From an uncultured Bacteroidales bacterium (lineage in GTDB: Bacteria; Bacteroidota; Bacteroidia; Bacteroidales; VadinHA17): DNA of 64,000 nucleotides. How positions within the stretch are numbered: position 1 is the first letter of the stretch; every line of letters begins with the position of its first letter. The stretch spans positions 128,389 through 192,388 of the forward strand of contig CAWHSH010000001.1 in NCBI GenBank assembly GCA_963831935.1, in the 5' to 3' direction. The notes beneath the pieces are model-generated. The model was not told the origin of the DNA and made no database searches. It saw nothing but the letters and a program-made list of their open reading frames with translations. The translations under genes and the position numbers were made by a program. Positions 10,351 to 64,000 of the stretch are shown in pieces.

Positions 10351-10701
10351 ATGAAAATCAACACCAATAATGAGATTCCTGCTTCAGATGTCCTGATGGA
10401 AGGAGCGAGGGGTGTGAAAATGAAAATCCTTCTTGGTTACAATGAAGGATCAGATAAAATTATAATGAGGCATTTTATTATTGCCTCGGGCGGGAATACC
10501 CCGTATCATCAGCATAATTACGAGCATCTGGTCAAAATTGAAACAAACAGAGGAATTGTTGTTGATGAAGACGGGAATGATCATGAGGTAATGAAGGGTC
10601 AGAGCATCTTTGTAAAACCCAATGAGAAACATCAATTCAGAAATCCCTTTAAGGAAGATTTTGAATTTACCTGCATTATTCCCAATCCCGAAAAGAAATA
10701 A
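10351..10701 (+). CDS. Cupin-domain protein
   Basis: 116 aa. The cupin metal motif GGNTPYHQHNYEH fits the G-x5-H-x-H-x3-E pattern. Confidence 0.7.
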   Translation: MKINTNNEIPASDVLMEGARGVKMKILLGYNEGSDKIIMRHFIIASGGNTPYHQHNYEHLVKIETNRGIVVDEDGNDHEVMKGQSIFVKPNEKHQFRNPFKEDFEFTCIIPNPEKK

Positions 10702-10703
10702 GA

Positions 10704-11503: not shown

Positions 11504-11696
11504 TTTTCTAAATTTTTATATTGTTGATCTTATACATTGTTTCAAAATTACTTATGCAATTATATATTCAATTGCAAACTTTATGTATAACAATTAAAAA
11601 CACACGATGGTTTACTAAGTCATTCTTTAAGACCATGTCTCTTTAGCTGTCGGTTTTATTTTTTCCGGGATCTGCAGACCTCTGCGGCAAATCCGG

Positions 11697-18315: not shown

Positions 18316-18793
18316 ATTTTACTTTGAAAGTATGTCCCGTCTTTTCCGGAGTCAATATAACCCCCTCTTCAAAATCATTATACTTAAAAATAAGGAAATT
18401 GGATTGATGTTCCCTGTACTCGGTAAACATCAGGTTTTTAACTGTAAATAGGTTTGCTTTTTTATTATAATAACATCTGAATTCCAATTTCAATTCACCG
18501 TTGGATGACTCGATATTTGTCAGGCTAACTTTAAGCTTTTTATTGTCGGCAGTTATCCGTACTCTAGCCTCAAGATATTTACCAACCAATATTTGCGTTG
18601 TATCAATTTTCCGTGAAGTATCAAAATACTGATCATCATTAATAGCAAACCTGTAATCAAAGATAAAATCAGTATAACTCAGTTTAATAAAACCCTTAAT
18701 TATCCCCTTTTCAGGAAAACATTCCATACTCATGAATGATTCGTTCATTGGATTGGCAAATACCCAATATGATAATATGAGTGCCTTTAACAT
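18212..18793 (-). CDS. Hypothetical protein
   Basis: 193-aa ORF with no motif I recognise. Its last ~100 nt overlap the convergent NagB-like tail, so the true stop may have been lost or shifted. Confidence 0.4.
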   Translation of the reverse strand: MLKALILSYWVFANPMNESFMSMECFPEKGIIKGFIKLSYTDFIFDYRFAINDDQYFDTSRKIDTTQILVGKYLEARVRITADNKKLKVSLTNIESSNGELKLEFRCYYNKKANLFTVKNLMFTEYREHQSNFLIFKYNDFEEGVILTPEKTGHTFKVKFIHKAHLLPYFFRAPWHASEIHPLSSLCNISYHG

Positions 18794-18931
18794 CCTTGAT
18801 AATTTTTATATATCATCTAACATGGTGATTCTGCAAAATTACGGTTCTTTTGTCTCCGTTTTACAGACGGGTATTAAAGTGGCCGATTCGCTAATTGGAT
18901 GTGAGTCTTTGCTCACCTGTAAATAAGAAAA

Positions 18932-18960
18932 GCCCCCGGAGTTGAAATCCGGGGGCTGGT
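18932..18960 (-). terminator. Rho-independent terminator (minus strand)
   Basis: GCCCCCGGA-gttgaaa-TCCGGGGGC hairpin, followed on the minus strand by TTTTCTT. Confidence 0.6.
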
Positions 18961-18985
18961 AATCACGTTATTTTTACCGTGACTG

Positions 18986-19153
18986 CTATATTGATTTTTC
19001 CATAATGTTAAAGCCTGCAGCCATCTGGGCTTCTCTCTCCACTTTTTGCATTTGAGGGTTTAACTTAACAGCCCGGGAATTGCCATTCGTCGAAATCAAG
19101 AACGATTCTGAGATCCAAAAGAGGCTCATAATATTCATTCCCTTAGTTTTCAT
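18986..19153 (-). CDS. Possible 55-aa small protein
   Basis: My translation is MKTKGMNIMSLFWISESFLISTNGNSRAVKLNPQMQKVEREAQMAAGFNIMEKSI. It ends 26 nt before the terminator at 18932-18960. No homology recognised. Confidence 0.25.
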   Translation of the reverse strand: MKTKGMNIMSLFWISESFLISTNGNSRAVKLNPQMQKVEREAQMAAGFNIMEKSI

Positions 19154-19437
19154 AACCTCTCATCTTTGTCCTTTTAATGGATACAAATAATATACCATTC
19201 ATATTAAGTAAGACTCTAAAATCCAATAATTAACAAAACTTTAAGATTTATATTTCAGCGTTGTATAAATTGTAAAAGAATATCGGGAAAACATGATCAT
19301 GGATGCCGGATGCTCTTTTTTATGATGTTTTCATATTTATCCTTTTATTTTTATTTGCTGAAATTTTTAGGGTTGAAAAATTTACTAATATTGGAACTCT
19401 GATTGTAATTCTGGTCGTTAAATTCTGAAGGAGCTAA

Positions 19438-20963
19438 ATGATTGATACAAATCATATCGGGTTTGACAATGAGAAATACCTTAGGGAGCAGACTCTGCTA
19501 TTCTTGAAAGAGTGAGCCGTTTCAACAATAAATTGTACCTCGAATTCGGAGGCAAGATTTTATATGATTATCATGCAGCCAGAGTACTTCCGGGATTTGA
19601 TCCAAATGTCAAGATGCGGCTTCTGCAGATTTTAAAGGATAAAATTGATGTAATCCTATGCATCCATGCAGGTGATATTGAAAGAAAAAAAGTCAGGGCT
19701 GATTTCGGAATTACCTACGATGTCGACTCATTAAAGACAATTGATGATTTCAGGGAATGGGGTATCGATGTCACAGCTGTGGTTATTACCCGTTATCAGA
19801 ATCAATCACCGGCAAAGGCTTTTAAAAATAAGCTTGAGTTAAGGGGAGTCAAGGTTTATCTGCATTACCCCACGAAAGGATATCCCTCAGATGTTGACCT
19901 TATTGTAAGCGATCAGGGATTTGGAGCAAACGAATATATCAAGACTACAAATCCTATTGTTATCGTAACAGGTCCGGGGCCAGGCAGCGGTAAGCTTGCC
20001 ACCTGCCTGTGCAATCTCTACCATGAGTATAAAATCGGAGTGAAGGCCGGTTATGCAAAGTTTGAAACATTTCCAATCTGGGATCTGCCTATTGATCATA
20101 AGGTCAATATTGCCTATGAAGCTGCCACTGTTGATCTTAAAGACGAAGTTCTGATTGATGAACTTCATCTGAGAGCATATGGTGTAAAGATTGTGAATTA
20201 TAATCGTGATATTGAAGCGTTTCATCTGCTTAAAAGGATAATTGAGAAAATAACGGGTGGTGAGTCTATGTATCAGTCTCCGACTGACATGGGTGTAAAT
20301 CGCGCAAGTTCGGGTATTGTGAATGATCGAATAATCACGGAAGCATCCCACCAGGAGATTATCCGGAGATATTTCAGGTGTGCTGTTGAATATGCAATGG
20401 GACTGGCAGATAAAGACACTCTTGACCAGGCTGTTAAGATCATGGAAAAGGTTGGCGCAAAAGTTGAAGACCGAAGGTTGTATTACCAGCAAGAGAAGCT
20501 GCCAAAGATGCTGAAAAATGTGGGAAAGGCAATGCAGGTATGTTTTGCGGAGCTGCTATTGAGTTGCATGATGGAACAATAATAACAGGTAAAAATTCTC
20601 CTCTGCTGCATGCATCTTCGAGTCTGATTTTGAATGCTGCCAAACATCTGGCCGAGGCTCCCCGATAATTTATACCTGTTGCCGAAAAACATAATTGATT
20701 CAGTAACCTATTTGAAAAAGGATATCCTGAATGGCAAAATGGTTAGTCTCGATGTGGAAGAAACTTTGATTGTCCTTGGCATAAGCGCATTATCTAATCC
20801 GGCAGCTCAAATGGCATTGGAAAACCTGAAAGGTTTACGAGGTTGTGAGGTGCATATTACACATATCCCTACCCCCGGCGATGAAGCGGGATGGCGAAAA
20901 TTAATGGTAAACCTGACATGCGATCCTGAGTATTCGAGCAAGAGACTTTTTATAAGCGGATAA
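19438..20963 (+). pseudogene. DUF1846 (UPF0371)-family protein; about three frameshifts
   Basis: MIDTNHIGFDNEKYLREQT (frame 1), then SRFNNKLYLEFGGKILYDYHAARVLPGFDPN (ORF 19512..20582), then AAIELHDGTIITGKNSPLLHASSSLILNAAKHLA (third frame, ~20477-20660), then ORF 20634..20963. The combined length and the FDNEKYL/LYLEFGGK blocks fit the DUF1846 family. Confidence 0.75.
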
Positions 20964-20976
20964 GTGCCAATCTGAT

Positions 20977-21696
20977 TCAATAATCCCAGACGCAACGTAC
21001 AGACAAACCCTGGTTCTTAGGGTAGAAGGCTTTTTGAACACGGTTGTTATCATAAAACATGAGCCTGCTGGCAGCCCAGTCATCTCCAAAGGCAGTAGTC
21101 CACCAGCAACCCATTTCACGAAGGCTGTCGAATGGGGCATCAGGATTGTTAAGACGTATACCCCCCGGGAAGGCTTTGAAGCCGCTTTCATCGGTGGCAC
21201 CGGTATTGGGGCTGTTCCAATGCCTGAAACCGGATTCTTTCAGCTTGCCACCTGCTATATTTTCGCCTCCCAGATAGTCTGTCAGTTTAGTCCATTCAGC
21301 ATCACTGGGGACATGCCAGCCTTTGGGACAAAGTTTACCTGTGTTAACCGTATACCAGTTATAAAGGAGTCCGTAAGTTACCCGATAAGCCAGATCATTG
21401 ACCTGCCAGCAGTATCCGGGGGTTGAAAGATTGCTCCAGGATCCTGTATCCATTACAAGGGGTATGGATGTCCCATCATTATACTTCGTGGTCTTAAGGT
21501 TCTGAACCATCCAGGTTTGAGTGCCGATCGGAATGGTCTTATAAGTATTCCCATCCCGATCAGTCATACTGCCGTACACAATCCATGGTCGGAGATTCAT
21601 GTGATCAAATGCAAAATCATCTTCCTTATTGCAGCTGTAAATTGAAATAACGACAGATATTAACGGGTAAAGTAAAATGCTGTTTTTTATTTTCAT
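20977..21696 (-). CDS. FISUMP-domain (Fibrobacter succinogenes major paralogous domain) lipoprotein
   Basis: Lipobox IYSC. Family blocks IGTQTWMVQNLKTTKYNDG, YGLLYNWYTV, CPKGWHVPSDAEWTKL and C-terminal GLSVRCVWD. Confidence 0.8.
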   Translation of the reverse strand: MKIKNSILLYPLISVVISIYSCNKEDDFAFDHMNLRPWIVYGSMTDRDGNTYKTIPIGTQTWMVQNLKTTKYNDGTSIPLVMDTGSWSNLSTPGYCWQVNDLAYRVTYGLLYNWYTVNTGKLCPKGWHVPSDAEWTKLTDYLGGENIAGGKLKESGFRHWNSPNTGATDESGFKAFPGGIRLNNPDAPFDSLREMGCWWTTAFGDDWAASRLMFYDNNRVQKAFYPKNQGLSVRCVWDY

Positions 21697-43905: not shown

Positions 43906-44851
43906 TTAAACCTCAAAGCTATCGCATTCACGATATGCCTGAATAACACGGGCTTCACCCTCCATCGTACCTCTTTTGCTTACTCCATGCTCCATGCAGA
44001 GAGTGCCATCATACTTTTTGTCGTAGAGGTACTTGAAAATGTTCTTAAAGTTAATTTCACCCGTTGTGGGTTCATTCCTGCCAGGGCTGTCTCCGAGATG
44101 AAAAGTCGCTATTTCGCTCCAGGCAGCTTCAATGTTGGGGATCAGATTGCCTTCGCTTATCTGCTGATGGTAAAGATCGTTTAAAATCTTGCATGAAGGC
44201 CTGTTCACCGCCCTGCAGATAGAGTATGCCTGCGGGATACCGGTAAGAAATAACCCTGGGTGATTAATATAATTATTCAATGGTTCAAGCACAATGGTTA
44301 ATCCCTTCAGGTTCCATAATATCACAGCAATACCTCAGGTTATCTATCGCATTTGCAGTCTGGTAATCCCTGTGGAGTTTGACATCATACCTTCCGAGAA
44401 CAACCAGTGCAAGTTTTGCTCCGGTTCTTTTTGCCACTTCAACACCCTCCTTCATATTGGCAATAAGCATATCACGGACTTCCTGATTGTTAAGGACAAA
44501 ATCCGTTTTTCCTGAATCAGCCCTGAGAACAAAAGGTCCCAGGTCCATGCCAAGGCGTTTCAGTTCATCAGTGATTTTCACCTGATCCTCAGCAGTCCGT
44601 CTCATAAGTCCGTTATCAAATACTGCGCGAAATCCCTGGTCATGGCAGAACTTGATGTTATCAATGGGATCCTGACCTGCATGCTGCCGGAACATACCCA
44701 GACCCGGAGCATACTTAAGCTTAAAAGGTGCAGCTGCATCAGCGGTTTTCTGCTGACCGGAGGTTTTTGCAGATCCCAAAATGGCAGGTGCTGCCAATAA
44801 TGCAGCACCTGTCGTTGCTTTCTTTATAAAATCTCTTCTTGAGCTATACAT
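43906..44851 (-). pseudogene. Tat-exported xylose-isomerase-like TIM-barrel protein (sugar phosphate isomerase/epimerase, hydroxypyruvate-isomerase-like); one frameshift near 44290-44325
   Basis: Tat signal SRRDFIKKATTGAALLAAPAIL. ORFs 44285..44851 and 43906..44325 overlap in different frames and together give ~315 aa of the AP-endonuclease-2/TIM fold, including a ...CMEHG... block. Confidence 0.75.
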
Positions 44852-44869: not shown

Positions 44870-46273
44870 TTAATTTCTGGCAGCTTGTCTTTCGGCCCGT
44901 CTTTTAGCTTGTTCTGCTAATTGTTCCGGCGTCGGAGGAACGTAAGCTTCACCTGCAATTGGCACTGATTTGTCGATATCAACCGGGCCGAATACGAATA
45001 CTGTAGGACCGAGTTTGAGGTCGGAGTTCATCATTTCCTCGTATGTTGTTTCCTTGCCCGTATAAGCCGAGATACGACCCATAATACCGATCATCGTTGA
45101 AACAGCAGTATTTTCAAGTTCATTGAATGTTTTTCCCGTGCGGATAGCAGTTACCAGGTCAATATGTTCCTGAACATACGGATCGACGCTAACGCGGTCT
45201 GTGGGCTTGCCATCTTTGTCGAGAGGATATTGGTACTTCCATAATTCGGTTCCTGCAAGATCGAGAATTGCACTATGACAATCGGTTGAACCTTTAGCTC
45301 CCTGCAATCTTTCTGAAACATTATTCGCACATCCGTTTATCTGACGGCACATACTGTGAACATGCATCCCATTTTCAAATGAATAGTCAACGCTGAAATT
45401 ATCATACTGGTCGCCTGTAACACGACGGAGCCTTGAGCCAAAACCAACTGCTTTTACAGGATGCATACCGAAGAACCAGTTCATTACGTCAAGATTGTGA
45501 ACATGCTGCTCGACGATATGGTCGCCTGATAACCATGTCCAGTTAACCCAGTTGCGGATCATCCACTCCATTTCGCTCCATGACGGATCATTATCACGAT
45601 GCCACAGTTTACCTCCGTTCCACCAGACATTACCGCCGGTCAACTCACCAATCAGTCCCTGCTGAACCTGCTGCCAGTTGGCAACGTAGTCGCGTTGGTG
45701 ACGGCGCTGTGTGCCTGTTACAATACTCAGTCCCAGTCCTTCAGCCTTTTTAGCTGTTGCCATAACCGATCTGGCCCCTGTCGGATCAACACATACCGGC
45801 TTTTCAGCAAAAATATGCTTCTTTGCCTGAACTGCTGCAGCCAGATGCTCCGGACGAAAGAAAGGGGGAGTTGCCATAATGATTATGTCAACGCCGGAAT
45901 CTATAACTTTCTGATAAGCATCGAAACCGACAAAACAATTTTCGAGAGGGACTTCCTGATTTTTCTCTTTAAGAATTCTTTCTCTGCAATTATCAACGCG
46001 GTCCTTGAAGGTATCGCCTAAAGCAGTGATCTGAAGGCTGGGACCTGCGCTGAGGAAGTTAATTGCTGCCCCTGTTCCTCTTCCACCGCAACCGATCACG
46101 CCAGCTTTAAGTACGGGACCATCTGGTGCCTGATCAAGGAAAGAAGGAACGGCAACAACTTTTTTTGTTTCGCGAGAACAACTGGTAATAATCGTCGGCA
46201 CAACAACGCCAGCCACTCCCACGGTAGCAGCTTTGCCAAGAAAATTACGTCTTGAAATGTTTGATTTTTTCAT
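44870..46273 (-). CDS. Tat-exported Gfo/Idh/MocA-family oxidoreductase
   Basis: Tat signal SRRNFLGKAATVGVAG. Rossmann motif VIGCGGRGTGAA. 467 aa. Confidence 0.85.
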   Translation of the reverse strand: MKKSNISRRNFLGKAATVGVAGVVVPTIITSCSRETKKVVAVPSFLDQAPDGPVLKAGVIGCGGRGTGAAINFLSAGPSLQITALGDTFKDRVDNCRERILKEKNQEVPLENCFVGFDAYQKVIDSGVDIIIMATPPFFRPEHLAAAVQAKKHIFAEKPVCVDPTGARSVMATAKKAEGLGLSIVTGTQRRHQRDYVANWQQVQQGLIGELTGGNVWWNGGKLWHRDNDPSWSEMEWMIRNWVNWTWLSGDHIVEQHVHNLDVMNWFFGMHPVKAVGFGSRLRRVTGDQYDNFSVDYSFENGMHVHSMCRQINGCANNVSERLQGAKGSTDCHSAILDLAGTELWKYQYPLDKDGKPTDRVSVDPYVQEHIDLVTAIRTGKTFNELENTAVSTMIGIMGRISAYTGKETTYEEMMNSDLKLGPTVFVFGPVDIDKSVPIAGEAYVPPTPEQLAEQAKRRAERQAARN

Positions 46274-50246: not shown

Positions 50247-52130
50247 TTAATATCCGGGATTCTGGATCAGCGAAGTGTTTTTATTCATTTCATCCCTCAT
50301 GATCGGGAAGAAGTAACACTTGTCATTCCAGGCTCTTGACTCAACTCCGATAAGCTGATTGGAATAGATCGGAGCACCCCAGGTAGTACCATCCGGCTGA
50401 CGATAATTGGTTGCATTTGCAGCAGTTACATATTTTACATCAGCACGATGCGTAGGATGATATGCAGCCGGACCAATTATCCAGCGGCGCACATCCCAGA
50501 AGCGGTGGTCTTCAAGTGCAAGTTCGATACGGCGTTCGTGCCTGACTATTGCACGCATCGCAGCCTGGTCGGGACTTCCGGTAATATTTGGCTGTCCTGC
50601 TCTTGTACGGATCATATTGATATAGGTTCTGGCTTCAGCAAGGTTTGCAGCATCTCCTATTTCAATGCAGGCTTCAGCGTAGTTCAAAAGAACTTCAGCA
50701 TAACGGATATGACGGAACGGGATATCCTGTTTTACAAATTGAGGATCGAGTGTCGGATCATTGAATTTCCGCATATAGTATCCGCTTCTTCCTCCGTTCC
50801 AGTTTTCAATCGGCCCCTCGCGGGTATCCACACCCGGGACAAGCTGGGTTGTTCCGTCCAGTTTAAATACATGTCCTACCTGTATTTTATCCCATGGATC
50901 CATTGTCTGGACGTCAGACGGACGTTTCCTCCATGGACAACCTTCGTAAAGGATGGTTGCATAGAAACGGGCATCCCGCCTGGCATAGGGATTGGCCTTG
51001 TGAACCGGATTATTCCAGTCAAAGCTGGAACCATCTTTCATCTCATAATCATCAACCAGATCTCCCAGAGGAGTATTGTTGCCCCAGTTGTGGTATCCGT
51101 TAGGTCCGGAATACAATGCCGGATTGTAGTCCGACCAGCTCCGGCCGGTTTTGGTAGTAAAATACTGAAGAAGGATATCTTCAGTTTCATAACCGTACGA
51201 AAGAAAGTAATCAACAAAATTTTTGGCAATGGAATCTCCGGGAGCAGGAGTTTCCTTATACAGGCTGAAGGTACCCAGATCGATCACAGCTTTTGCAGCA
51301 GCTTTTGCAGTTGTCCAGCGGTCAGCCTGCGATCCGCTGGTATAGCCCAGCAGTTCCTTGTTTGTAAAACTTGAACCGGCTCCGGTCAGATAGCTGGACA
51401 TTTTGGAACCTTCATGCAGATCGCTGGCAGCATACAGCAAGGTTCTTGCTTTAAGGGCAAGAGCTGCTCCCTTGGTTGCATGGCCCCGGTCACCTCCTGC
51501 AAATGAAGCAGGAAGATACATGGCAGCAGAATCGAGCTGGCCAACTATGTAGTTTATACATTCCTCATAGGTATTCCTGGCAATGCTATAATCCTGGTTC
51601 AATCCATAGGGTTTGGTGATAAGAGGCACTCCTCCATAAAGGGCAACCAGATAATGATAAGTATATCCCCTGAGGAAGTAAGCTTCACCAATCGTGCGGT
51701 CCTTATCTGCTGGTGAAAGAAACTGAACGCCGCCAACTTTTGTAAAGAAAAGATTGAGCGCCCTCACATTCTTATAAAGAGGTGCCCAGCGATAATGCAA
51801 AGTATGGGCCGTAGGATCGGTATTTCCCCAGTCAGTCGACCAGCCCATCAGGCCATCCTGGGTCATCAGGGATTTGTTGAAATCGAATGCGCCCCAGTCG
51901 GGAGTGAATGAGGTCTCATCGGAATAATCGGAAAGCCTTTCAATAGCGAACGGCCATCCTAATGCATTATAATAACAATCGTTGATAAATGCTCCTACGA
52001 GGTTAGGGTCTACCCATACATCCGCATCAGAATATGATCCCAGAGGTTTTGTATCAAGGAAGTCTTTATTGCATGAAGTAACTATTCCGATCAGAAAAGT
52101 CGTACTTAAAATATATAATAGCTTTCTCAT
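50247..52130 (-). CDS. SusD/RagB-family nutrient-binding outer-membrane lipoprotein (pair 1)
   Basis: 627 aa. Lipobox VTSC. TPR-like SusD core. C-terminal ...YFFPIMRDEMNKNTSLIQNPGY. Confidence 0.9.
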   Translation of the reverse strand: MRKLLYILSTTFLIGIVTSCNKDFLDTKPLGSYSDADVWVDPNLVGAFINDCYYNALGWPFAIERLSDYSDETSFTPDWGAFDFNKSLMTQDGLMGWSTDWGNTDPTAHTLHYRWAPLYKNVRALNLFFTKVGGVQFLSPADKDRTIGEAYFLRGYTYHYLVALYGGVPLITKPYGLNQDYSIARNTYEECINYIVGQLDSAAMYLPASFAGGDRGHATKGAALALKARTLLYAASDLHEGSKMSSYLTGAGSSFTNKELLGYTSGSQADRWTTAKAAAKAVIDLGTFSLYKETPAPGDSIAKNFVDYFLSYGYETEDILLQYFTTKTGRSWSDYNPALYSGPNGYHNWGNNTPLGDLVDDYEMKDGSSFDWNNPVHKANPYARRDARFYATILYEGCPWRKRPSDVQTMDPWDKIQVGHVFKLDGTTQLVPGVDTREGPIENWNGGRSGYYMRKFNDPTLDPQFVKQDIPFRHIRYAEVLLNYAEACIEIGDAANLAEARTYINMIRTRAGQPNITGSPDQAAMRAIVRHERRIELALEDHRFWDVRRWIIGPAAYHPTHRADVKYVTAANATNYRQPDGTTWGAPIYSNQLIGVESRAWNDKCYFFPIMRDEMNKNTSLIQNPGY

Positions 52131-52142
52131 AATGGATTAGTT

Positions 52143-55100
52143 TTAGAAGGTTAATGTAACTCCAAGGTTTACGACTCTCTGAAGGGGATAATACTGACCT
52201 GAAGGTATTTCAGGGTCAATCAGTTTGATCTTGTCGAGAGTTATCAGATTAAGCCCGCTGATATAAACGCGAAGCATCTGAATATTCAGAGCACTGTTGA
52301 CTTTAGCCGGAAGTGTATAGCCAAATTCCAGGTTTTTCAGGCGAACATAGTCTGTCGGAAATTCCCAGAATGTATTGCCCTGATTTCTCCAGTACTCATT
52401 ATCGCGGTTCCATGCACGTGGCCATGTAGCGCCGGTATTTTCGGGAGTCCAGCGTTTATCAGCAAACTTTTTATAGAAGTTCCCGATATCACCGGATTCC
52501 ATTCCGAGATATACGATGTTACCAGCTGCCCCCTGTATTAACATACTGAGATCGAATTGCTTATATGTAAGAACAGCATTAAATCCCCCAATAAAAGTTG
52601 GTACGGTATTTTTACTGTCGCGAACCCTGTCCAGTCCGTCAATTGCACCATCATTGTTTACATCCTTGAATTTTATATCACCAGGCTGTGCACCAGCCCA
52701 ATGAGGATAAGCGTCAAGAGAGGCAGCATCCTTGAAAATCCCGATAGAAACATAGTTTAAGCCGGCATCCATTGGCATACCCTGGGCTTTCTGATATTCA
52801 GGTATACCGGGAGTGTCAAAGGTGAAATCGACTTTGTTCTTTGCATAACTGCCATTTAAAGAGAGGTCATAACCGAAATTTCCTGAAGCACCATGGTAGG
52901 TTATTATATATTCAAATCCCCTGTTCGAAACCTTTCCGATATTCTGAGGGGGAAGGGTCATCCCGGTACTTGCAGGAATAACGGCAGATGCCTGCCAAAG
53001 GATCTTTGAGCGCAGGTTATAGAAAAAGTCAGCTTCCAATGTCAGTTTATTATTCAGTAAAGTTGCATTGAATCCTATATTTGACTGATTTGCTACCTCC
53101 CATGTCACATCCGGATTTGGAACAACATTTTCATACAGCATCTTGGCATTGACACTCTGCCCGTATACATAATTCTGGCTGTCGAAGCTATAGGTAGAAA
53201 GATATTGATATTCCTTCAATTGATCATTGTAATAAATCCTGTCATTACCGGTTTGCCCCCACGAAGCTCTGAGCTTAAAGTCGCTTATGAAAGCAATGTT
53301 ATCTTTCCAGAAGTTCTCATCCGAAACACGCCAGCCCAGGGATACTCCGGGGAATAATCCAAATTGCTTACCCGGTTTGAACATATACGAACCATCATAC
53401 CTCAAAACCACTTCAATGAGATATCTCTGACTATAGTTGTAGTTGAATCGGCCAAAATAGCTCTCACGGGCATTCTGATCAGCCCAGCCATTGTTGGTCA
53501 TATATGTATCAGCGGCTCCGGCAAAGAGCTGGGGGATAGCGGAGGTAACATAATTCTTCCTGAATGCATTCAGATAGTTATTCAGAGCACTTTGCCTTTC
53601 AGCACCTACCATAAGTTTAATATTGTGTGTGGCGGCTATCGATTTTTCATAGGTAGCATACACGTTATAGGTAGTCTTGTGCTCCGTCCTGAAAATCCTC
53701 GCTTAGCTCCGGTGCATCCAGTCCCCTCTTTCCTTTCGTAAGTACATGGTCAGCATTTCCATCCCATGTGTACAGGTACCAGGGTGTCCGGAAACGTTTA
53801 TGGAAACGGAATATCTTGTCGTATGAACCATTGGCCTGCACAGACAATCCTTTTACCCACGGGATTGTAATATTCAGTCTTACGTTACTCTCCAGCACGT
53901 AGATCCGGTCTTTGTCTGTTCCGGTGGCATTGGTTACGGTTACTGCAGGGTTAAATCCGTATTCGATATCAGGTCCGGGTTCGCCGGTTGGCCAGTAAGC
54001 AGGCATATTGGGTTTGCCTCTCATAAGCATACGGAAGATATCTCCTGCACCGACAGTAGGGAAGTTCTTATTTTCCTGGCGGCCTGCAACGTCAAAAGCG
54101 ATATCGATATTTTTCGAAATCTTTCCATCGATGTTACTCCGGAAATCATATTGAGAAAAGTTGGTAGCACTGTGATAGTAATATGCATCCTGATATTTCG
54201 TACCAAGCGACAGAAAATACTTCATGCTTTCGGTACCACCGGAAATAGATATATTTTCGTAATTCTGTCTCGACCACGGTTTGAATACTTCTTTGAACCA
54301 ATCGGTATTGGGGTGTCCCCAGGGATCAGATCCATCTTTAAATTTCGTCAGATCATCAGCTGAAAATTGCTGGTTCCGTCCTCCGCCAGGATTGGAATAA
54401 TATGCAATCTCATTAAGCATTGTTGCATAGGTAACTGCATCGGCCATTTTAGGAACAACCGTGGGTTGGTTATAACCATTGTTCAGATTTAAAGTAATTG
54501 TCGGTTTTCCGATTTTACCTCGTTTAGTAGTAACCAAAATAACCCCGTTTGCAGCCTGTGTACCATAGATGGCTGCTGAAGCGTCCTTTAGAATGGTAAA
54601 ACTTTCAATGTCAGCAGGGTCCAGACGTTCAAGTGAACGATGGGGAATCCCGTCAATAACAACAAGCGGGGTATTATCACCAAGGGTATTGGCACCGCGA
54701 ATAGTAATCGTAGCGCCGTCATAACCTGGTTCACCGCTCTTTTGTACCGACGTGAGGCCTGGCAGACGTCCAACCAGACTGTTGGTAAGGTTTGTTGTAG
54801 GCGACTGCTTCAGGGTTTCACCCCTGACAGCACTAATGGAACCGGTTAAGCTGGCTTTTTTGGCCGTGCCATAGCCGGTAACCACAACCTCTTCAAGAGC
54901 TGTTACCTCCCCGGACAAGGCAACATTCACAGTTGTCCGTCCGTTCAAAGGAACTTCCTGTGTTACATAACCGATAAAAGAGAAAACAAGTGTTGCATTT
55001 CTGTCGGTTATGGCTAAGGAAAAATTCCCATTAACATCGGTAATAGCACCAAAATTTGTACCTTTTATCACAATGTTTACACCAGGCATTGCCTCAGCGG

Positions 55101-55296
55101 TTGCAGCATCGCTGACTTTACCAGTTATTGTAATTTGCTGCTGATCGTCAGTGCCTGGATTATTTCCAGCAAACGTTAAGGCTGGAGTTGTAAGGGTACA
55201 TAGGAGTAGAAGGATTATAAATTTCGCAGTCATTAGTAACTTACGAAAATCCATATCTGGCTTTAAAAGCCAAAAACAGAATGTAGTTTTTTTCAT
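52143..55296 (-). pseudogene. SusC/RagA-family TonB-dependent transporter (pair 1); single frameshift near 53665-53700
   Basis: ORF 53665..55296 holds the N-terminal extension, CarboxypepD_reg (ITGKVSDAATAEAMPGVNIVIKG) and plug (ITIRGANTLGDNTPLVVIDG). ORF 52143..53663 holds the barrel, ending ...NLGVTLTF. The two ORFs are in different frames. Confidence 0.85.
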
Positions 55297-55581
55297 ACTG
55301 TTACATATAAATTAATGATTTAGGAATTAAGGGTAAAATAAAAAGGATTATATAGCGAATGACAATGCGCTGAGTTTCCAGGTCTTTGACAAGGACATTT
55401 TCCTGGTTGTGGATCAATTCTCCTTCGTTATCCAATAAGAAATTCTTGTTTAAGGTTAGTCAGGCTATTCTTTGATTAGATACTTGGAAGTGCAATTTAC
55501 ACACTTAATAAATTAAAGTCAAGTTTTTCTTTAAAGAGAAAGTCAGAATACAGCCGGGAATGATGCGTTCAAATATTAATC

Positions 55582-55818
55582 ACCCTCTGTGACCCTACTG
55601 TGAATCCTTTGTGGATCTCTGTGAAACAATTTAAGAACTTACACAGAGTTAAAAAGAACTCATCCCCCGGCCCCTTCTCCCGAAGTGAGAAGGGGAGTAT
55701 TAAATTGATAATCAGAATTTAAGCCCCTCTCCCCCGGGAGAGGGGTTGGGGTGAGGTCTATTCACAGGGGGGATAGGGGTCAAAATAAAAAAGCCGGCCC
55801 TTTCAGACCGGCTTTTAC
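55582..55818 (+). repeat. Second copy of the composite R2+R1+terminator repeat, downstream of SusD-2
   Basis: See 49986-50216. It occupies the same position relative to the SusD stop codon (55852). Confidence 0.85.
55787..55814 (-). terminator. Rho-independent terminator after SusD-2
   Basis: AAGCCGG-ccctttcaga-CCGGCTT hairpin with a T-run on the minus strand. Confidence 0.6.
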
Positions 55819-55851
55819 CATATTAATATCAGGCTTTTTACTAACGGAATA

Positions 55852-57760
55852 CTAATAACCCGGGTTCTGCTGTAACTGAGGTGCTTTGTTCATCTCATCA
55901 CGTGCAATCGGTACCCAGTAGTATTTATCATTTGCCCATGATCTTTCATCAGGCATAGATGTAAGATCGAGCTTCCACTCCATATCTCCGTTTACCCACT
56001 CTTTTATCTTCATTTCATAAACGTTTTCAATGACTGTAGGAGCAGTCATCCAGCGTCGCATATCATACCACTGGTGTCCTTCGGCAAAGTGTTCAAGATA
56101 CCTTTCATGACGAACCCACTGCCGGGCCGTTGGCTGATCGGTCGTAACCCTGTCGGGTAAGTCCTGCACGGTTCCTGACCTTGTTAAGGGCATCGAGGCC
56201 ATTCTGAAGATCAGCACCGCCGAGTTCGATACATGCTTCCGCATAGTTAAGGAAAATTTCGGCAAACCGGAATTCAACCCAGGTATTGGTATTTCTGTAG
56301 TACTGTCCCACAGTTCCCGGATCCAGGAACTTTTTGAGATAGTAACCGTTCTTGGTTCCATTCCATGCTTCGATAAGTCCCTGCCTTGAATCGACGCCAT
56401 AGGATTTTACTGTTCCATCCATATTATACACGTGGCCGGTTTGTACCTTATTAAAAGGATCAAAAGCAGCACCATCAGCAGGACGGGCCTGCCATGGAGC
56501 TCCATTGAACAGAACTGTTGCATAGAAGCGCGGCTCACGGCCAACATAAGGATTCCTTTGCGGATCTGCTGTAAGCTGGGCTGCGGTGGCAGTTCTGAGG
56601 ACCTGGTCTCCCGGAGTATATTTGTCCCATACAAACGGAGTGCCATCAGCCATTTCGTACTGCCTTACAGCCGGTTCAGTCGGATCATTGTTACCCCAGT
56701 TGTGATATCCGCAAGGCCCATACCAGATGTTAGCATTGTTTACATTACCACCGGTAAGAGGATACTGAATGCCCCAGATTGTTTCCTTGTTCCATGCACC
56801 TTTCTGGTTAAAGATATTAAAATAGGTATTTGCATAGGTTGTAACATCTGCATCAGCAAGAGGTGATGGGGGATCAGTGTAGGTCCCGACAAGGTCGAAT
56901 GCCCCGTAGGTACCATCTATCACAGACTTGGCTGCATCCCTTGCTGCAGTCCAGCGGGCAGCCTGTGTGCCGGTAGTGAAGGATACAAGGGGATTTGAAG
57001 CTTCATAGCCACCGTTGACAAGAGGGCTTGCACAGAAGAGAAGGACTCGTGATTTTAGTGCGGCAGCTGCAGCTCTGGTTGCACGACCCTGTTCCATTCC
57101 TTTTGCAGGCAGGTTGGCAATTGCTGCATCAGCGTCAGCAAGAACCAGATCGAGTGTTTCCTGTAATGACGATCTTTTAATTGAAAGAAAATCACCCCCA
57201 AGCTTGAATGGTTCTGTGCTTATAACTGCTCCGCCATAATTCATAAGCAGTATTGCATATTCGTAAGCCCTTATGAAATATGCCTCACCTTTAAGACGCG
57301 TCGCAAGTGCTTCGTCTGGTGCAGATAATCCTTCTAATCCATCAATACCAGCCAGCACAGTGTTAAGGTTTTGAATATTACTGTAAAGATGGGGCCAGCG
57401 AAGGAATCCAGCATAACCGGTATTGGCAAAGTATCCAAGCTGGTCAGGACTCATCGTCCCTTTCAGATGAACATAGTTGGCAGGACGGTGAATACATAAT
57501 GTCTGATCAGTACCAGAGGTAAGCAGGTCTTCGCGCATTCCAAGGACACCATTATTATCACTATTCATATTGGTGGCATTCTGAATACCACCCATCCTGT
57601 CATAGCATTTGCCGAGGTAAGCCTTAACGACATTTATATCTGAGAAAACCACCTGCTCGTTAAATGAACTAACCGGGTCCTGATCCAGAACGTCTTTACA
57701 CGACGTTGCAAACAGGAGCAGTACCGCTACCGAGAGTATATAACTTAATTGTTTTTTCAT
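55852..57760 (-). pseudogene. SusD/RagB-family lipoprotein (pair 2); one frameshift near 56105-56160
   Basis: ORF 56105..57760 has lipobox ATSC and the SusD core. The tail of ORF 55852..56400 reads ...QWVRHERYLEHFAEGHQWYDMRRW...YWVPIARDEMNKAPQLQQNPGY. Confidence 0.85.
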
Positions 57761-57789
57761 ATCAGATTATTTAAGAATTTCTTAATCAG

Positions 57790-60700
57790 TTAAAAAGAGA
57801 TATTTGCACCAAAAGCAAATGTCTTCATAATAGGATATACTCCGGCTCCCTGGGCTTCCGGATCAAACTTCTTCGTCGCAGAATAGAGCAATCCAAGGTT
57901 GTTACCGGAGAAATAAACACTTGCATTTGAGATACCGACCTTTTTCAGAATACTGCTCGGAATATTGTATGAAAGCATAAGGTTCTTGAACCGGCAATAA
58001 GCCGTGTTATCGAGCCAGTATGTGTTCATATTCACAGCATGGGCGTAGTAAAAGTCATTACGGTTGTATGCTCTGGCAATATCAGTTTCGGTGTTTGTAG
58101 GTGTCCAGCGGTTGTCATAGGTCCATTGCATGTAGTTTCCTGCTTCACCACGTCTTTCATCATAGATATTCTGCTTTAAGAATTTCCCCTGTCCCTGTAA
58201 GAGAACTGATAATGTAAAATCTTTCCAGGTTGCATCCAGAGTTAATTCCATAGAAAATCTCAGGTACATCAGCCTCATCAATAAGGACCCTGTCATCACC
58301 GTTTATAACACCATCTTTCGAAACATCCTCAAATATAAGGTCACCGGGTTTTGCACTGTTCCAGTGAGGATAAGCATCAACAGCTCCCTGGTCGGCAAAA
58401 ACACCAATAGATCTGTACATCAGCCAGGCATTATAAGGGTGACCGGTGGTCTGCTGCCATGGAACTGCCCTTGCCGGTTCATCCTGGAAAACTACTTTGT
58501 TATGGTTATAGCTGAAGTTGCCGCCCAAGATCAACTCAAAGGTCAGATGTAATATTTTTATGAACACCTGCCTCGATTTCAAAACCCTGGTTATCGACAC
58601 GGGCTATATTTTCGTTTGGAAGCGAAAGACCGGTGAAATTCGGAACAGAAGCATCCCTTGGAGCAAGAATATCTTTCCTGATATTATAGAAGTATTCAAA
58701 ATCAAGGCTGATAAGATCATTAAGCCATTTTGATTCAAATCCGATGTTCTTGGTGGTCTGTGTTTCCCATGTTATATTCGGGTTTGCAACAACAGGAGGA
58801 CCGACAACAGTTTCAATTGATGTACCTGTACCAAATACCATACCTGATCCCAGGCTAAAACTGTTCATGTACTGGAAAGGATTTCCCGGGTCCATACCCA
58901 TCATACCGTATGATGCCCTGAGTTTGAAATAGTTGATAAACGGAATATTGTCTTTCCAGAATCCTTCCTCAGATGCACGCCATCCTACCATGAATCCCGG
59001 GAAATATCCCCATCGTTTGTTGGGCGGGAATTTAAGTGAACCGTCAGCACGGAAAAGTATTTCAGCAAGATATTTTCCCTGATAATCATAGGTTGCACGG
59101 CCGATATACGATTTACGTGCATAAATTGTCATTCCGCCTGTGGTATTCTTGTTCTGATCAGCTCCTGCATCCATTGTCTGAATCAGCGATGAAATATAGA
59201 ACTGACGGAATCCGTAAAAGTTATTATAATCGCTTGTATATTGTTCGAAACCGCCATACAGGAATATATTATGATTACCAAATTTCCGCGTAAAGGTGGC
59301 ACCAAGGTTAATTGTCTTGTTTATTGTCCGGTCAAAATTCTCTTCATTTTGGGGAGAAGAGAGCCCTCTGAGAGTTGGTGTCAGTGGCATATCGGTAATG
59401 AAACCTGTTACAGGATCTGTTGTAGCCTGCGACCAGTTGGGATAATAGAGAATCCAGGGTTTGAAGAATCTTTTCCTGTAGAAATTTGTCAGGTCATAAC
59501 TGTAAATACCATTAAGTGAAAGACCTTTTATCAAATGGGATTGTAATGGTTGCGTTAAATGAACTCAGCAATCTGTATGTTTTCTGGTCGTCTTTACCTC
59601 CTGCAAAAGTTGATGTAACAACAGGGTTATCACCATATTCAATATCAGGTCCGGGAAGTCCGTTTGGCCAGAATGACCATGTTGTCGGAGTCAGACGTGT
59701 TGACTGACCAACAATGGCATCAGCCGATTTATAAGGATAAACCCTGTTTACCTGGAATCCTGCCAGTTCAACCCCTGTCTTAAGCCAGTCGGTAATTGGC
59801 ATATCAACTTTTGCACGGACATTATACTGTTTATAGTTGGTGGAGGATTGCTTATACATTGATTCATCACCTTTTAGACCGAAGGAAACATAATAAGTCA
59901 TTCCTTTGGTACCACCGTCAATTGTAATATTGTGCCTGTATGGTTCTGTCCACTTTTTGATAAGGTCACCATACCAGTCAGTATTCGGATGTCTCCACGG
60001 ATCCTTATGGTTTTTAAACAGTTCAATGTCTGCATCGGTATATGTCCGTGATTTACCTGTTGCCGTCTGGTATTCTGAAAGCATTGTAGCATATTCCGCG
60101 GCATTGGTTACATCAGGGATTATACTCGGTGTCTGACATCCCTGGTAGAACTGATAATTAATCTTGGTTTGCCTTCTGCACCTTTTTTGGTAGCGATAAG
60201 GATAACTCCATTTGCAGCCTGGGCTCCATAGATTGCAGCAGAAGCATCTTTCAGAACTGATAGGCTTTCAATATCATTCGGGTCAATTTCATCCATTGAA
60301 CGTCCGGGAACACCATCAATAACCACAAGAGGTGCTGTTTGTGAAGCATATCTGTTTCTGTCTCCACCCAGAGTACTACGACCTCGAACAAGGATTTTGT
60401 GGCGTAAGCTCCGGGTTCACCTGTTCCCTGTATTACAATTGATCCCGGCAAACGTCCTGCAAGTGATGTTGAAACGTTTGGAGAAGGTACAGACTGGATG
60501 CTTGCACCTGAAATAGAGGTTACAGATCCGACAACGTTTGCACGTTTCTGGGTGGAATAACCTACAACGACAACTTCATCAAGGTCGGTAATCTCTCCTG
60601 AAAGTGCTACATCAACAACAGTTCTGCCGTTAAGGGCAATTTCCTGGGTTACATAACCGATAAATGAAAAGACCAGGGTTGCGTTGCTGTCAACTCCGGA

Positions 60701-60984
60701 TAAGTGAGTATTTCCCTTCGGCATCGGATATAGCACCAAGTGGCAGTACCTTTAACCTGGATGTTTACACCCGGCATTGCCTCGCCGGTTGAAGCATCGG
60801 TAACTGTTCCTGTAACCCTCACCTGTTGCTGATCATCAATGGATGGATTGTCTGCAGCCAATGAATAGGCCGGAACCGCCAGGCCGCAGAACAGAAGAAG
60901 AACTACAATTTTCACAGGAAGTAACAACCTGCGAAAACTTACATTTGGTCCTAAGGACCAAAAGCAGTTGGGAGTTTTTTTCAT
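57790..60984 (-). pseudogene. SusC/RagA-family TonB-dependent transporter (pair 2); at least six frame changes
   Basis: Seven overlapping ORF fragments (60649..60984, 60251..60739, 60120..60326, 59512..60084, 58536..59534, 58160..58600, 57790..58299) together give the N-terminal extension, CarboxypepD_reg, plug and barrel, ending ...FGANISF. The N-terminus is paralogous to pair 1 (ATLVFSFIGYVTQE shared). Confidence 0.8.
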
Positions 60985-61531: not shown

Positions 61532-63072
61532 TCAATTTGAGGTGCTTACGTTTCCGGTTTTGCCGTCAAATTCGCACACTACCCTGAATCCTACATTAAA
61601 GCAGTCGGAATACCACCAGATGCTTTTTGGCATCTGCGGATCGGTCCGAAGCCATGCTTCTGTTCTTGTATAATCACGCGCGGCACTTCTCAAAGCTCAG
61701 GCCGGACTCTGGAATGTACCGCCGCGGATGACATGTTCCTCACCGCTTTCGGGACCCTTGGGATCTTTAACAACACCTGCAGGGATATTGTGAATAGGCG
61801 TCAGGCTGGTACCAGTCAGCACAGAATTCGGCTACATTTCCTGCCATATTTTTCAGTCCGAACGGATTTGGTTTTACGAAATCGGGTGTCTGGGTTTTCG
61901 ACGGACTGTTTTCCTTATATACTATATATCTGTTAATTAGAGTTGTATCATTCTTGCCAAGTTTTGCCCTGAGCCCCGTCTTTTCATATTTCTTCAGATC
62001 TCCATCGAAGAAAAACGGACCTTGTGTTCCGGCTCTGCACGCATATTCCCATTCAGCCTCCGTCGGCAGACGGTAGGTTTTACCCGTGACAAGTGAGAGC
62101 CATTTGCAGTAGGTCTCTGCTGCATGATACGTAAAAGATATTGCCGGACGCTGTCCCATTCCCCATCCCTGGTCAGGTTGTCCATATGGAGGAGTGGCAC
62201 CGGATATTGCATCGACATTCTGAGATGCCTTAAGACCGCTTCTCAAACCTTCAGTATCAGATGAACGGCCTTCAGCGGATGTCTGAACATAAAATGCAAG
62301 GTATTCATCCCATGTGACTTCAACCTCTGCCATGAAGAACGGACTTATCTCAACTTCCCTTACAGGTCCTTCATCTGCTTTCCTGAAAGGCTCATCTTCG
62401 GGACTGCCCATCTGGAATTTTCCTCCGGAGATGGCAACCATGTTAAAGGTAACTGAGGATTTTGGTATTTTTTCGGTATAGTTCTTAAATTCGGTAACGG
62501 TCGCAGGTTCTGTAAATATCTCTTTAGGTGCTGACGAGACGGCCCCGAAAGTTGTATTGCTTCCATGGGTATAGCCTTCAATATAGTGGCCAGCATTCAG
62601 ATGACAGTTTATGCAATTCAGGTCAGGAGTCTTTTTCTGCTGGGTATAATAAAGATGTGCATTCTCCCCGTCCTTTGGTAAGTTTCGCAGGGAAAAGGTT
62701 TTCATGACATTTAATACAGGTGCTTTCATACGTGTATCCACGGGCTAGTTCAAGTCTGCCGCGTTCAACCCAGTCGAATGAGGCTGAATCCTTGGTCCAG
62801 TAACTCCACAGATCGCGCAACCCTGTTTTCCCTTTTGCCCACAGGTATCCATGTCCCTTTGGAGGAAGATGGCACTCCACGCAGGCAACTCTGTATCCTG
62901 ACTGGGTTTCATAATGTACAGATCTTTTCCAGTCTGCATCCGCCATCGGGTGAATATGGCAAGACATGCAATATTCATTTGTTGAGGTTTTATTCGATTG
63001 CCCTGCCGGCACTGAGAATAATGAGCACACCGATGATCAGTCCGGGAGTGAACCAAATAAGAACTTCTTCAT
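61532..63072 (-). pseudogene. Fusion of a NapC/NirT-type tetraheme cytochrome to an FGE-sulfatase (SUMF1/EgtB/PvdO-family) domain; at least four frameshifts plus one in-frame TGA
   Basis: My frame tracking gives MKKFLFGSLPG|LIIGVLIILSAG|QSNKTSTNEYCMSCH...CVECH...CIKCH|...CINCH..., then the FGE domain (MGSPEDEPFRKADEGPVREVEISPFFMAEVEVT, RLPTEAEWEYACRAG, NPFGLKNMAGNVAEFCADWY), then |AGVVKDPKGPESGEEHVIRGGTFQSPA*ALRSAARDYTRTEAWLRTDPQMPKSIWWYSDCFNVGFRVV. The in-frame TGA is at 61697-61699. Confidence 0.7.
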
Positions 63073-63223: not shown

Positions 63224-63550
63224 CGGCCTCACCCTCTCCTGTTACCTGCTCTCCCGGAGAGAGCGGGTGATGACAGTTCAAATTTGTAAATGGCCATTAT
63301 TTTGCTGGTGTTGTGTCGGCCTCACCCCCTCCTATCCCCCGCTCCCGGAGTGAGCGGGGGATGAGTGTCAAATTTGTAAATGACCATTATTTTGATGATG
63401 TGGTGTCGACCTCACCCCCTCCTGTTTCCTGCTCCCGGAGTGAGCAAGGGATGACAGCTCAATTTTGTAAATGACTATTATTTTGATGATGTGGTGTCGG
63501 CCTCACCCCCTCCTGTCCCCCGCTCCTGGAGTGAGCGGGGGATGATAGTT
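63224..63550 (-). repeat. Tandem array (~3.5 units of 90-93 bp) of inverted family R1 hairpin repeats
   Basis: Units start at 63224, 63317, 63407 and 63498. Each unit is CGGCCTCACCCCCTCCTNTCCCCCGCTCCCGGAGTGAGCGGGGGATGA followed by a conserved ...TCAAATTTGTAAATGACCATTATTTTGATGATGTGGTGT. Confidence 0.85.
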
Positions 63551-63570
63551 CTTTTATCTTGATACGAATT

Positions 63571-63938: not shown

Positions 63939-63960
63939 ATGCCTTCTCTTTTACTTTTGT

Positions 63961-64000
63961 AAGCCCCTCTCACTCCGGGAGAGGGGTTTGGGGTGAGGCC
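63961..64000 (+). repeat. Family R1 hairpin repeat, forward orientation, at the window edge
   Basis: AAGCCCCTCTCACTCCGGGAGAGGGGTTTGGGGTGAGGCC. It is inverted relative to the unit at 63498-63545 on the other side of the DUF559 remnant. Confidence 0.8.

Follow-up and report, generated by a model that had tools for sequence, protein, structure and literature searches.

A tetrahaem cytochrome fused to a cysteine-less FGE-like domain and paired with a Tat-exported dehydrogenase in Bacteroidales

In a 64,000-nucleotide stretch of DNA from an uncultured Bacteroidales bacterium of the VadinHA17 lineage (GenBank assembly GCA_963831935.1, contig CAWHSH010000001.1, positions 128,389 to 192,388; hereafter the window), a gene close to one end encodes a NapC/NirT-type tetrahaem cytochrome fused to a domain with the fold of the formylglycine-generating enzyme (FGE), and its reading frame is broken at several sites. 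We consider it probable that the fusion protein is functional as the membrane subunit of a three-gene periplasmic module, and that the frameshifts and the in-frame TGA of this copy are assembly errors. In such a module, a Gfo/Idh/MocA lipoprotein exported by the twin-arginine translocation (Tat) system would oxidize a sugar-type substrate, such as a glycoside or a cyclitol, to a keto compound, which would then be processed by a xylose-isomerase-like TIM barrel that is also Tat-exported. The reducing equivalents would pass via the FGE-like domain and the four haems to menaquinone, with the FGE-like domain acting as a docking or cofactor-carrying adaptor, possibly one that bears flavin mononucleotide (FMN) on the invariant Thr of a D-x-I-S-G-[A/P]-T motif. 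The fusion family is abundant in Bacteroidales of anoxic habitats, is probably misleadingly annotated and is strictly paired with the Tat-exported dehydrogenase. It bears on the question of how periplasmic sugar dehydrogenases of the Gfo type are re-oxidized in Bacteroidota, and a dedicated tetrahaem link to the quinone pool would make periplasmic sugar oxidation respiratory. What is new is an undescribed fused adaptor domain, together with an undescribed class of partner, on a NapC/NirT-type module of the quinone pool.

Fusion architecture and the dehydrogenase partner

When the broken frames are read through, the gene yields a protein of about 512 amino acids (aa) (Table 1). Pfam searches with its two largest fragments identified Cytochrom_NNT (PF03264; E 2.6e-19, 70.1 bits against a cut-off of 24.1) and FGE-sulfatase (PF03781; E 1.4e-37, 130 bits against a cut-off of 23.3), and the FGE-domain strings RLPTEAEWEYACRAG, NMAGNVAEFCADWY and DPQMPKSIWWYSDCFNVGFRVV were all found in the read-through translation. 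The closest intact orthologue, protein P0001 on contig L014, is 93-94% identical in amino acid sequence; across five segments, 94.5% of 508 aligned codons of the read-through match the intact orthologue. In intact orthologues the PF03264 profile scores 83.3 and 92.5 bits and is covered over positions 10-171/174. The four CxxCH motifs are invariant in both of our alignments (A1 and A2), and all four are present in each of 20 divergent copies. These data bear out the original prediction, made from the window alone, that the gene combines a transmembrane helix, four CxxCH sites and an FGE-sulfatase domain. In addition, this genome carries an intact CcsBA-type gene for cytochrome c maturation.

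A search of a collection of 5.8 billion proteins returned 7,999 relatives at E<=1e-3. The best 120 of these are all 502-533 aa long, all contain both PF03264 and PF03781, and are 76-93% identical. The predicted single fused protein of about 510 aa thus has thousands of intact fused counterparts of 502-533 aa. An organization as two separate genes, one for the cytochrome and one for the FGE domain, is ruled out, since all intact relatives are single open reading frames in this size range. Relatives occur in at least 575 species-level genomes, which with few exceptions are metagenome-assembled genomes (MAGs) labelled as Bacteroidales, and the record titles of the carriers name fens, lake sediments, soils and digesters, mostly anoxic habitats. 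Among genomes drawn evenly from the order, the fusion occurs in 22 of 151 (19 of 142 genera), and among 300 other genomes drawn from the whole phylum in only one. Several genomes contain two paralogues of about 58% identity, which stand in tandem in the same-genus genome G004, while the present genome (G000) encodes the window's copy alone. A further copy, 81% identical to the Bacteroidales protein, lies on a 2.6-kb contig (L046, JAFGFM010000146.1) from a MAG labelled Deltaproteobacteria; in all likelihood this contig was assigned to the wrong bin. A NapC/NirT–FGE fusion is described in none of the papers of the searched library, in agreement with the earlier statement that the architecture cannot be placed in any characterized system.

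The FGE-like domain aligns over residues 206-455 with the FGE of T. curvata (6s07; E 4.8e-26). As judged by sequence, it shares with this enzyme and with human FGE (1y1e) the fold and the core motifs RLPTEAEWE and GNV.E.C.DWY, but it differs from them by a missing Cys pair, a loop of about 45 residues that contains D-x-I-S-G-[A/P]-T-P-P, an extra DPQ.PKS.WW.SD motif and the lack of a sulfatase context. After RGG the sequence continues TFQSPAGALRSAARD, in which Ser takes the place of the first Cu-binding Cys of FGE and a second Cys is lacking; the fusion has '...RGGTFQSPAGALRSAARD' where FGE has '...GGSFLC', and the alignment to 6s07 ends with 'GGTFQS' against 'GGSFLC'. Both Cu-binding cysteines are absent in every member examined, including all 20 divergent copies. 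Therefore, the domain cannot be a formylglycine-generating enzyme. Both of its additional elements, the loop (in full D-x-I-x-G-x-T-P-P-x-G-x-P-x-Q-G-W-G) and the C-terminal motif DPQ.PKS.WW.SD..GFR, are family-specific and invariant across 37-93% identity.

Comparison with the NCBIfam models pointed in the same direction for both halves. The best match of the domain is PvdO (NF051459; 98.1 bits against a cut-off of 500) and the second best is GldK (87 bits against 350), while the models for EgtB, SenA and OvoA score 49.1 against 360, 52.7 against 420 and 29.5 against 400, respectively. The cytochrome half reaches 54.7 bits with TorC (cut-off 478), 51.9 with NrfH (134) and 38.1 with NapC/NirT (311). 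On these scores, the fusion is best classed as a member of the NapC/NirT Pfam family joined to a member of the FGE fold superfamily, and not as an FGE, EgtB, PvdO, NapC, NrfH or TorC. The names given in databases, 'SUMF1/EgtB/PvdO family nonheme iron enzyme' and 'formylglycine-generating enzyme', probably mislead. No DinB/His-triad domain of the kind present in EgtB, OvoA and SenA was found in the fusion, whose N-terminal half is the cytochrome. Of the relationships to FGE and EgtB raised in the original prediction, the FGE fold therefore holds, but neither the Cu-binding Cys pair nor the EgtB-type DinB/His triad is present.

Periplasmic FGE folds that likewise lack the catalytic Cys pair were found among solved structures, namely PvdO (5hha) and PorK/GldK/GldJ. 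None of these is fused to a cytochrome and none has a Gfo partner, and the scores of the fusion fall well short of the equivalog cut-offs (500 and 350). Further members of the FGE-like subfamily (seen in P0136, P0158, P0219, P0232, P0237, P0241 and P0254), recognized by the loop D-A-[VI]-[ST]-x-P-[ST] and the C-terminal DP..P.S.WW, either stand alone as secreted proteins of about 350 aa or are joined to other N-terminal domains in proteins of 618-727 aa. Giant proteins with repeated FGE-like stretches were also observed, with up to 21 stretches matched in 4,448 aa. By sequence comparison, cysteine-less FGE folds appear to form a large uncharacterized radiation.

The partner of the fusion is a Gfo/Idh/MocA protein. 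In the order sample, an orthologue of the window's Gfo gene (E<=1e-60) was detected in all 22 genomes with the fusion and in none of 20 genomes without it. Outside G000, the Gfo gene lies directly downstream on the same strand, at a distance of 23-138 nt, for 23 of 25 cytochrome copies, and three of four relatives at 37-50% identity also have a Gfo neighbour. Across 20 divergent loci the only conserved genes are those for the cytochrome–FGE-like fusion, Gfo and AP_endonuc_2 (the xylose-isomerase-like TIM barrel), in that order in 16 of 20. The Gfo protein of the window starts with MKKSNISRRNFLGKAA...ITSC (SRRNFLGKAA...ITSC), that is, with a twin-arginine signal followed by a lipobox. Twin-arginine N-termini are visible in nearly all Gfo copies and in 15 of 16 AP_endonuc_2 copies of the divergent loci. 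In G004, the tandem paralogues (L036, C2:612001-632000; 6336-13789) stand ahead of two Gfo/Idh/MocA genes and one for a 509-aa protein of the ThuA (trehalose utilization) family, which hints that one paralogue serves a pathway of the 3-keto-disaccharide type.

According to the original prediction, the quinol pool would feed electrons through the NapC/NirT module to an FGE-type oxidase. NapC/NirT proteins are usually quinol dehydrogenases, the match to the FGE-sulfatase profile is strong, and the best NCBIfam match, PvdO, is a periplasmic oxidizing enzyme, though its score of 98 bits falls well short of the cut-off of 500. We nevertheless consider an oxidase or maturase that depends on O2 or a metal and acts on a periplasmic substrate very improbable in the light of the above results, since the Cu-binding cysteines are missing in every member examined and a DinB/His-triad domain as in EgtB, OvoA and SenA is lacking. 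Families that recur beside the fusion gene are Gfo/Idh/MocA, AP_endonuc_2, fumarase, IU_nuc_hydro-FmdE, SusC/SusD and lactonase. None of these is a sulfatase, the non-recurrent neighbours being only partly annotated, and no pyoverdine-type gene occurs among the conserved neighbours. Moreover, an O2-dependent enzyme is less expected in carriers that are mostly MAGs of anoxic habitats, and an oxidase of this kind would leave the strict pairing with a Tat-exported dehydrogenase of the NAD(P) type unexplained.

Frame breaks in the fusion gene and across the assembly

The lesions of the fusion gene were mapped in two ways, by DNA alignment to P0001 (L014) and by a frameshift-aware protein-DNA alignment. 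Both agree on exactly four frameshifts (three insertions and one deletion) and one in-frame TGA (Table 1), where at least four frameshifts and this TGA had been predicted. Selenocysteine incorporation or another recoding at the TGA is ruled out, as all homologues have Gly at this position. It had been concluded from these lesions that the gene is now decayed and probably non-functional. The state of the rest of the assembly and the substitution pattern of the gene itself lead us to abandon this conclusion.

As a background sample, 63 proteins with a length of 250 aa or more, encoded in 340 kb of G004 (5 contigs, 100% complete), were aligned to their orthologues in G000 (20 contigs, 92% complete; sampled on contigs C1, C4, C15 and C19), and frame breaks in G000 were counted by frameshift-aware dynamic-programming alignment. 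This count replaced one of frame switches based on tblastn only (0.4 per kb), which was an underestimate because high-scoring segment pairs crossed short out-of-frame stretches. Within 86.4 kb, 94 frameshifts and 4 in-frame stops were detected (1.09 frameshifts per kb). Of the frameshifts, 79 (84%) were 1-nt insertions and 15 were deletions, and 32 of the 63 genes were affected. The 31 genes without a frameshift call cover 49-92% identity, indicating that the alignment method makes no false frameshifts at such divergence.

Essential genes are among those broken, with seven frameshifts in valS, six in ftsI, five each in murC and mraY, four in purF and one each in murD, murE and ftsW. The names valS, murC, murD, mraY, murE and purF were confirmed by NCBIfam on the G004 proteins, whereas the ftsI protein matched penicillin-binding-protein models only, below their cut-offs, and ftsW is our own reading. 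The four genes checked for copy number (valS, mraY, ftsI and murC) are single-copy in G000, where valS lies at C15:132996-135620. Seven frameshifts in the sole valS are incompatible with life, so that these lesions must stem from the assembly. The fusion gene has 2.6 frameshifts per kb, and valS, ftsI, murC and mraY have 2.7-4 per kb.

The breaks are patchy. Contig C19 and the region C15:85-93 kb are clean, while nearly all genes in C15:101-188 kb, including the dcw cluster, are affected. In the neighbourhood of the fusion gene, from 46 kb to about 14 kb beyond the window end, 39 frameshifts were found in aligned coding sequence totalling about 24.5 kb, among them three in the fumarase gene, two (plus a stop) in a metallo-beta-lactamase gene and four (plus a stop) in one AP_endonuc_2 gene. 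Leaving out the fusion gene, about 23 kb of this neighbourhood has 1.5 frameshifts per kb, and at this rate four frameshifts in 1.52 kb have a Poisson probability of about 0.2. The four frameshifts of the fusion gene are thus unremarkable against the local background, and the lesion pattern tracks position, not gene.

The substitutions in the gene tell the same story. Differences from L014 fall on codon positions 1, 2 and 3 in the numbers 14, 15 and 135. When polarized by a third sequence, the changes number 47 synonymous and 8 non-synonymous (the stop included) on the window lineage, and 46 and 19 on the sister lineage. The codon-position statistics show that the fusion gene has been under purifying selection up to the present. 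Four neutral indels are expected to come alongside tens of substitutions, as is known from mutation accumulation, but the window lineage shows no non-synonymous excess of this kind, which speaks against real decay. Within the genus, full-length intact copies are present in 12 genomes; the other broken copies, in G006 and G018 (assemblies of 40 and 8 contigs), have one 1-nt insertion each, at different codons.

The alternative is a true and very recent pseudogene, in which the fusion gene and the adjacent SusC/SusD block were inactivated and the lesions are biological. Five disabling lesions in 1.54 kb amount to about 2.4 times the genome-wide mean density, G000 has no second copy of the fusion gene, and the downstream SusC/SusD genes are likewise broken. 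Two features count against an assembly artefact, namely the clustering of the lesions (2.6 frameshifts per kb here compared with 1.1 genome-wide) and the presence of a clean nonsense substitution, which is uncommon among the errors of this assembly (4 in 86 kb). We nonetheless regard such a pseudogene as improbable. Single-copy essential genes show an equal or higher density of the same insertion-biased lesions, the breaks take in nearly every gene of the affected stretches, including the fumarase gene and the dcw cluster, the non-synonymous changes on the window lineage (8, beside 47 synonymous) stay below those of the sister lineage (19, beside 46), and the partner Gfo gene is uninterrupted. 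A search of a metagenome contig collection with a lineage-specific 26-mer gave no match and hence no contig of the same strain. Taken together, the apparent decay is very likely artefactual, the assembly being prone to insertions and polished only in patches. The window's copy is not special, its sole distinctive trait, the decay, being this artefact, and with about one frameshift per kb any pseudogene call in G000 is unsafe without read support.

Direction of electron flow and the flavin question

With the fusion taken as a functional membrane subunit, the nature of its partners suggests in which direction electrons would flow. Menaquinone accepts electrons from NAD(P)H in a downhill reaction, whereas the reduction of NAD(P)+ by menaquinol would have to climb about 250 mV. 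Since the partner is a dehydrogenase of the NAD(P) type, electron flow toward the quinone pool is likelier. The combination of a Gfo dehydrogenase and a xylose-isomerase-like TIM barrel is a signature of sugar pathways in which oxidation is followed by elimination or isomerization, as in those for inositol, 3-keto-glycosides and C-glycosides. This pairing makes a periplasmic sugar-oxidizing module the best explanation, and we infer the substrate class from it.

The same partners might also act in other roles. Menaquinol could deliver electrons via the haems to a Gfo protein that reduces a keto-sugar, or the FGE-like domain could be a mere docking scaffold like PorK/GldK, with another component carrying the electrons. 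NapC/NirT proteins normally oxidize quinol, and the flavin motif described below is degenerate in most members. Furthermore, cysteine-less FGE folds are purely structural in PorK/GldK, where GldK is the second-best NCBIfam match of the domain and PorK structures were found by sequence. We rate these alternatives as unlikely. The first faces the uphill step given by textbook potentials, and the invariance of the D-x-I-x-G-x-T-P-P..P.QGWG loop and of DPQ.PKS.WW.SD at 37-93% identity represents more constraint than is usual for a passive scaffold.

Electron flow from the dehydrogenase into the quinone pool can be compared with several known systems. With NrfH, CymA, NapC, TorC and cytochrome cM552 of the NapC/NirT family, the fusion shares one N-terminal transmembrane helix and four CxxCH motifs. 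It differs by the C-terminal FGE fold, which is not described for the NapC/NirT family, and by a Tat-exported NAD(P)-type dehydrogenase as the partner instead of a nitrite, nitrate or trimethylamine N-oxide reductase. There is precedent in TorC for a NapC-type module with a C-terminal partner-facing domain, and in cytochrome cM552 for electron flow into the quinone pool. Like Zymomonas GFOR and BT2158 of B. thetaiotaomicron, the Gfo partner is a periplasmic sugar-type dehydrogenase exported in folded form with its cofactor. The BT2156-BT2159 cluster for 3-keto-glycosides has a xylose-isomerase-like TIM barrel in the operon, as here (PMC8121099). For BT2158, 'another as yet unidentified sugar' was proposed as the acceptor, and cytochrome c-dependent dehydrogenases were argued to be precluded in B. 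thetaiotaomicron (PMC8121099); in the present module, a dedicated tetrahaem partner is encoded beside the dehydrogenase. BT2160, considered as a cytochrome–FGE protein, proved to be a SusR-type regulator. By analogy, the fusion would work like the cytochrome subunit of glucoside 3-dehydrogenase (G3DH), ThuAB and LacABC, although the type of FAD-dehydrogenase subunit found in G3DH and LacABC is absent in the present module.

A covalently bound flavin in the FGE-like domain would solve the problem of how a hydride is passed to haems. ApbE attaches FMN to the seven-residue motif D-x-x-[S/T]-G-A-[S/T] (PMC12052999; PMC8238504), and DAISGAT in the long loop of the window's FGE-like domain matches this motif perfectly. 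Among 200 close homologues, SGAT is found in 197, and SGAT or TGAT in all but one. In the loop of this motif Asp, Gly and Thr are invariant, while Ala and the Ser/Thr at position -3 are variable. In a model substrate, replacement of Ala by Val retained about 50% of flavinylation (PMC12052999), so that a Pro at the Ala position, as in the D-x-I-S-G-P-T variant, may also be tolerated, although it lies outside the known ApbE motif. The loop of the window's protein and of its close clade resembles the flavinylated sites of NqrC, RnfG, NosR, PplA, DUF2271 and DUF3570 in having the motif in a periplasmic loop with ApbE in the genome, but the host fold here is FGE-like and not FMN_bind. Two surveys of flavinylated proteins do not mention FGE, sulfatase or NapC.

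ApbE is encoded in G000 at C4:688081-688914, away from the locus, and no apbE was seen among the recurrent neighbour families. ApbE is expected anyway for Nqr/Rnf, so that its presence in G000 is non-discriminating. A covalent flavin on the fusion seems possible but rather doubtful. Similarly tentative is the complete adaptor scheme, in which the FGE fold would serve as a redox adaptor of a new kind. Here FMN attached by ApbE to the invariant Thr might accept a hydride from NAD(P)H, held non-dissociably by Gfo, and pass single electrons to the four haems and on to menaquinone. If this scheme is true, it would represent an undescribed respiratory entry point at which the oxidation of sugars in the periplasm yields conserved energy to anaerobic Bacteroidales, and it would name the missing electron acceptor of periplasmic Gfo-type dehydrogenases.

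Several further points weigh against the proposed module. The flavin motif is not conserved family-wide, as the 20 divergent copies have SGPT (14), TGPT (2), VGAT (2) and SGAT (2), and two of four distant relatives also have SGPT. The module would also have to pass a hydride from bound NAD(P)H to one-electron haems. An AlphaFold2 model calculated from a 27-sequence alignment is poor (mean pLDDT 58.7, and below 50 both in the haem part and in the loop at 266-312 that holds the flavin motif), and the suggested electron path has no geometric support from it. In the window lineage, moreover, the partner Gfo gene lies 15 kb from the cytochrome gene and is not adjacent to it.

Locus layout and neighbouring genes

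The features of the fusion gene and of its surroundings in the window are listed in Table 1. The Gfo gene is separated from the cytochrome gene by two SusC/SusD pairs and two genes on the opposite strand, and beyond the AP_endonuc_2 gene lie BNR_2 fragments and a lactonase gene.

Table 1 Features of the fusion gene, its lesions and its partner genes in the window.
Feature	Position	Strand	Remark
Cytochrome–FGE-like fusion gene	61532..63072	minus	ATG 63072-63070, stop 61534-61532; ~512 aa read through
N-terminal transmembrane anchor LIWFTPGLIIGVLIILSAG	63005..63061	minus	Read from sequence; conserved in all aligned homologues
Tetrahaem module	62601..62970	minus	CMSCH 62956-62970, CVECH 62869-62883, CIKCH 62704-62718, CINCH 62601-62615
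FGE-sulfatase-fold domain without the FGE Cys pair	61577..62460	minus	Pfam PF03781; family-specific C-terminal motif DPQMPKSIWWYSDC..GFRVV
DAISGAT motif	62193..62213	minus	Long loop of the FGE-like domain
Lesion 1: 1-nt deletion, codon 6	63055..63056	minus	Both alignments
Lesion 2: 1-nt insertion A>AA, codon ~28	62993..62994	minus	Both alignments
Lesion 3: 1-nt insertion C>CC, codon ~133	62677..62678	minus	Both alignments
Lesion 4: 1-nt insertion CC>CCC, codon ~430	61782..61784	minus	Both alignments
Lesion 5: in-frame TGA (GGA>TGA)	61697..61699	minus	Gly (GGA/GGT) in every homologue
Gfo/Idh/MocA lipoprotein gene, partner	44870..46273	minus	467 aa, predicted Tat-exported, uninterrupted
Xylose-isomerase-like TIM barrel (AP_endonuc_2), third module member	43906..44851	minus	Split by one frameshift
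Two SusC/SusD pairs	50247..60984	minus	Between cytochrome gene and Gfo
SusC#1	57793-60984	minus	Frameshifted
SusD#1	55855-57760	minus	Frameshifted

Two layouts recur among 80 close loci examined. In the first (32 of 70), the cytochrome gene is followed by the gene for a 449-aa Gfo protein, AP_endonuc_2 and lactonase; in the second (also 32 of 70), it is followed by SusC-SusD, the opposite-strand genes for DUF6057 and PD40, and then the same Gfo gene. The window locus has the second layout with two SusC/SusD pairs, while its relatives have one pair or none. The SusC/SusD block seems to have entered a once contiguous operon by a lineage-specific insertion. A general functional link of the fusion to SusC/SusD was ruled out by the distribution of this insertion, which is present in 32 of 70 close loci against 0 of 20 divergent loci.

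A second orthologue of the Gfo gene is located in G000 at C8:53225-54512. It is 54% identical to that of the window, contains one frameshift and has no adjoining cytochrome–FGE-like gene, in which it differs from the paralogue operon of other members of the genus, where such a gene is adjacent.

Between 63560 and 63960 of the window, only short broken open reading frames without a Pfam match were found. In close relatives a DUF559 gene was observed, and in 54 of 79 loci the cytochrome gene has a divergent IU_nuc_hydro-FmdE fusion gene immediately upstream; the latter gene appears to be absent from the window lineage. At window positions 63224-63551, a 91-bp unit that contains a G/C-rich hairpin (CCCCGCTCCCGGAGTGAGCGGGG) is repeated 3.6 times in tandem, and an inverted further copy of this unit runs off the window end at about 63960-64000. 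In the related locus L002, two tandem reverse transcriptase genes of the group II intron type (RVT_1 and GIIM, 475 aa) are located just downstream of SusD, at 17567-21095.

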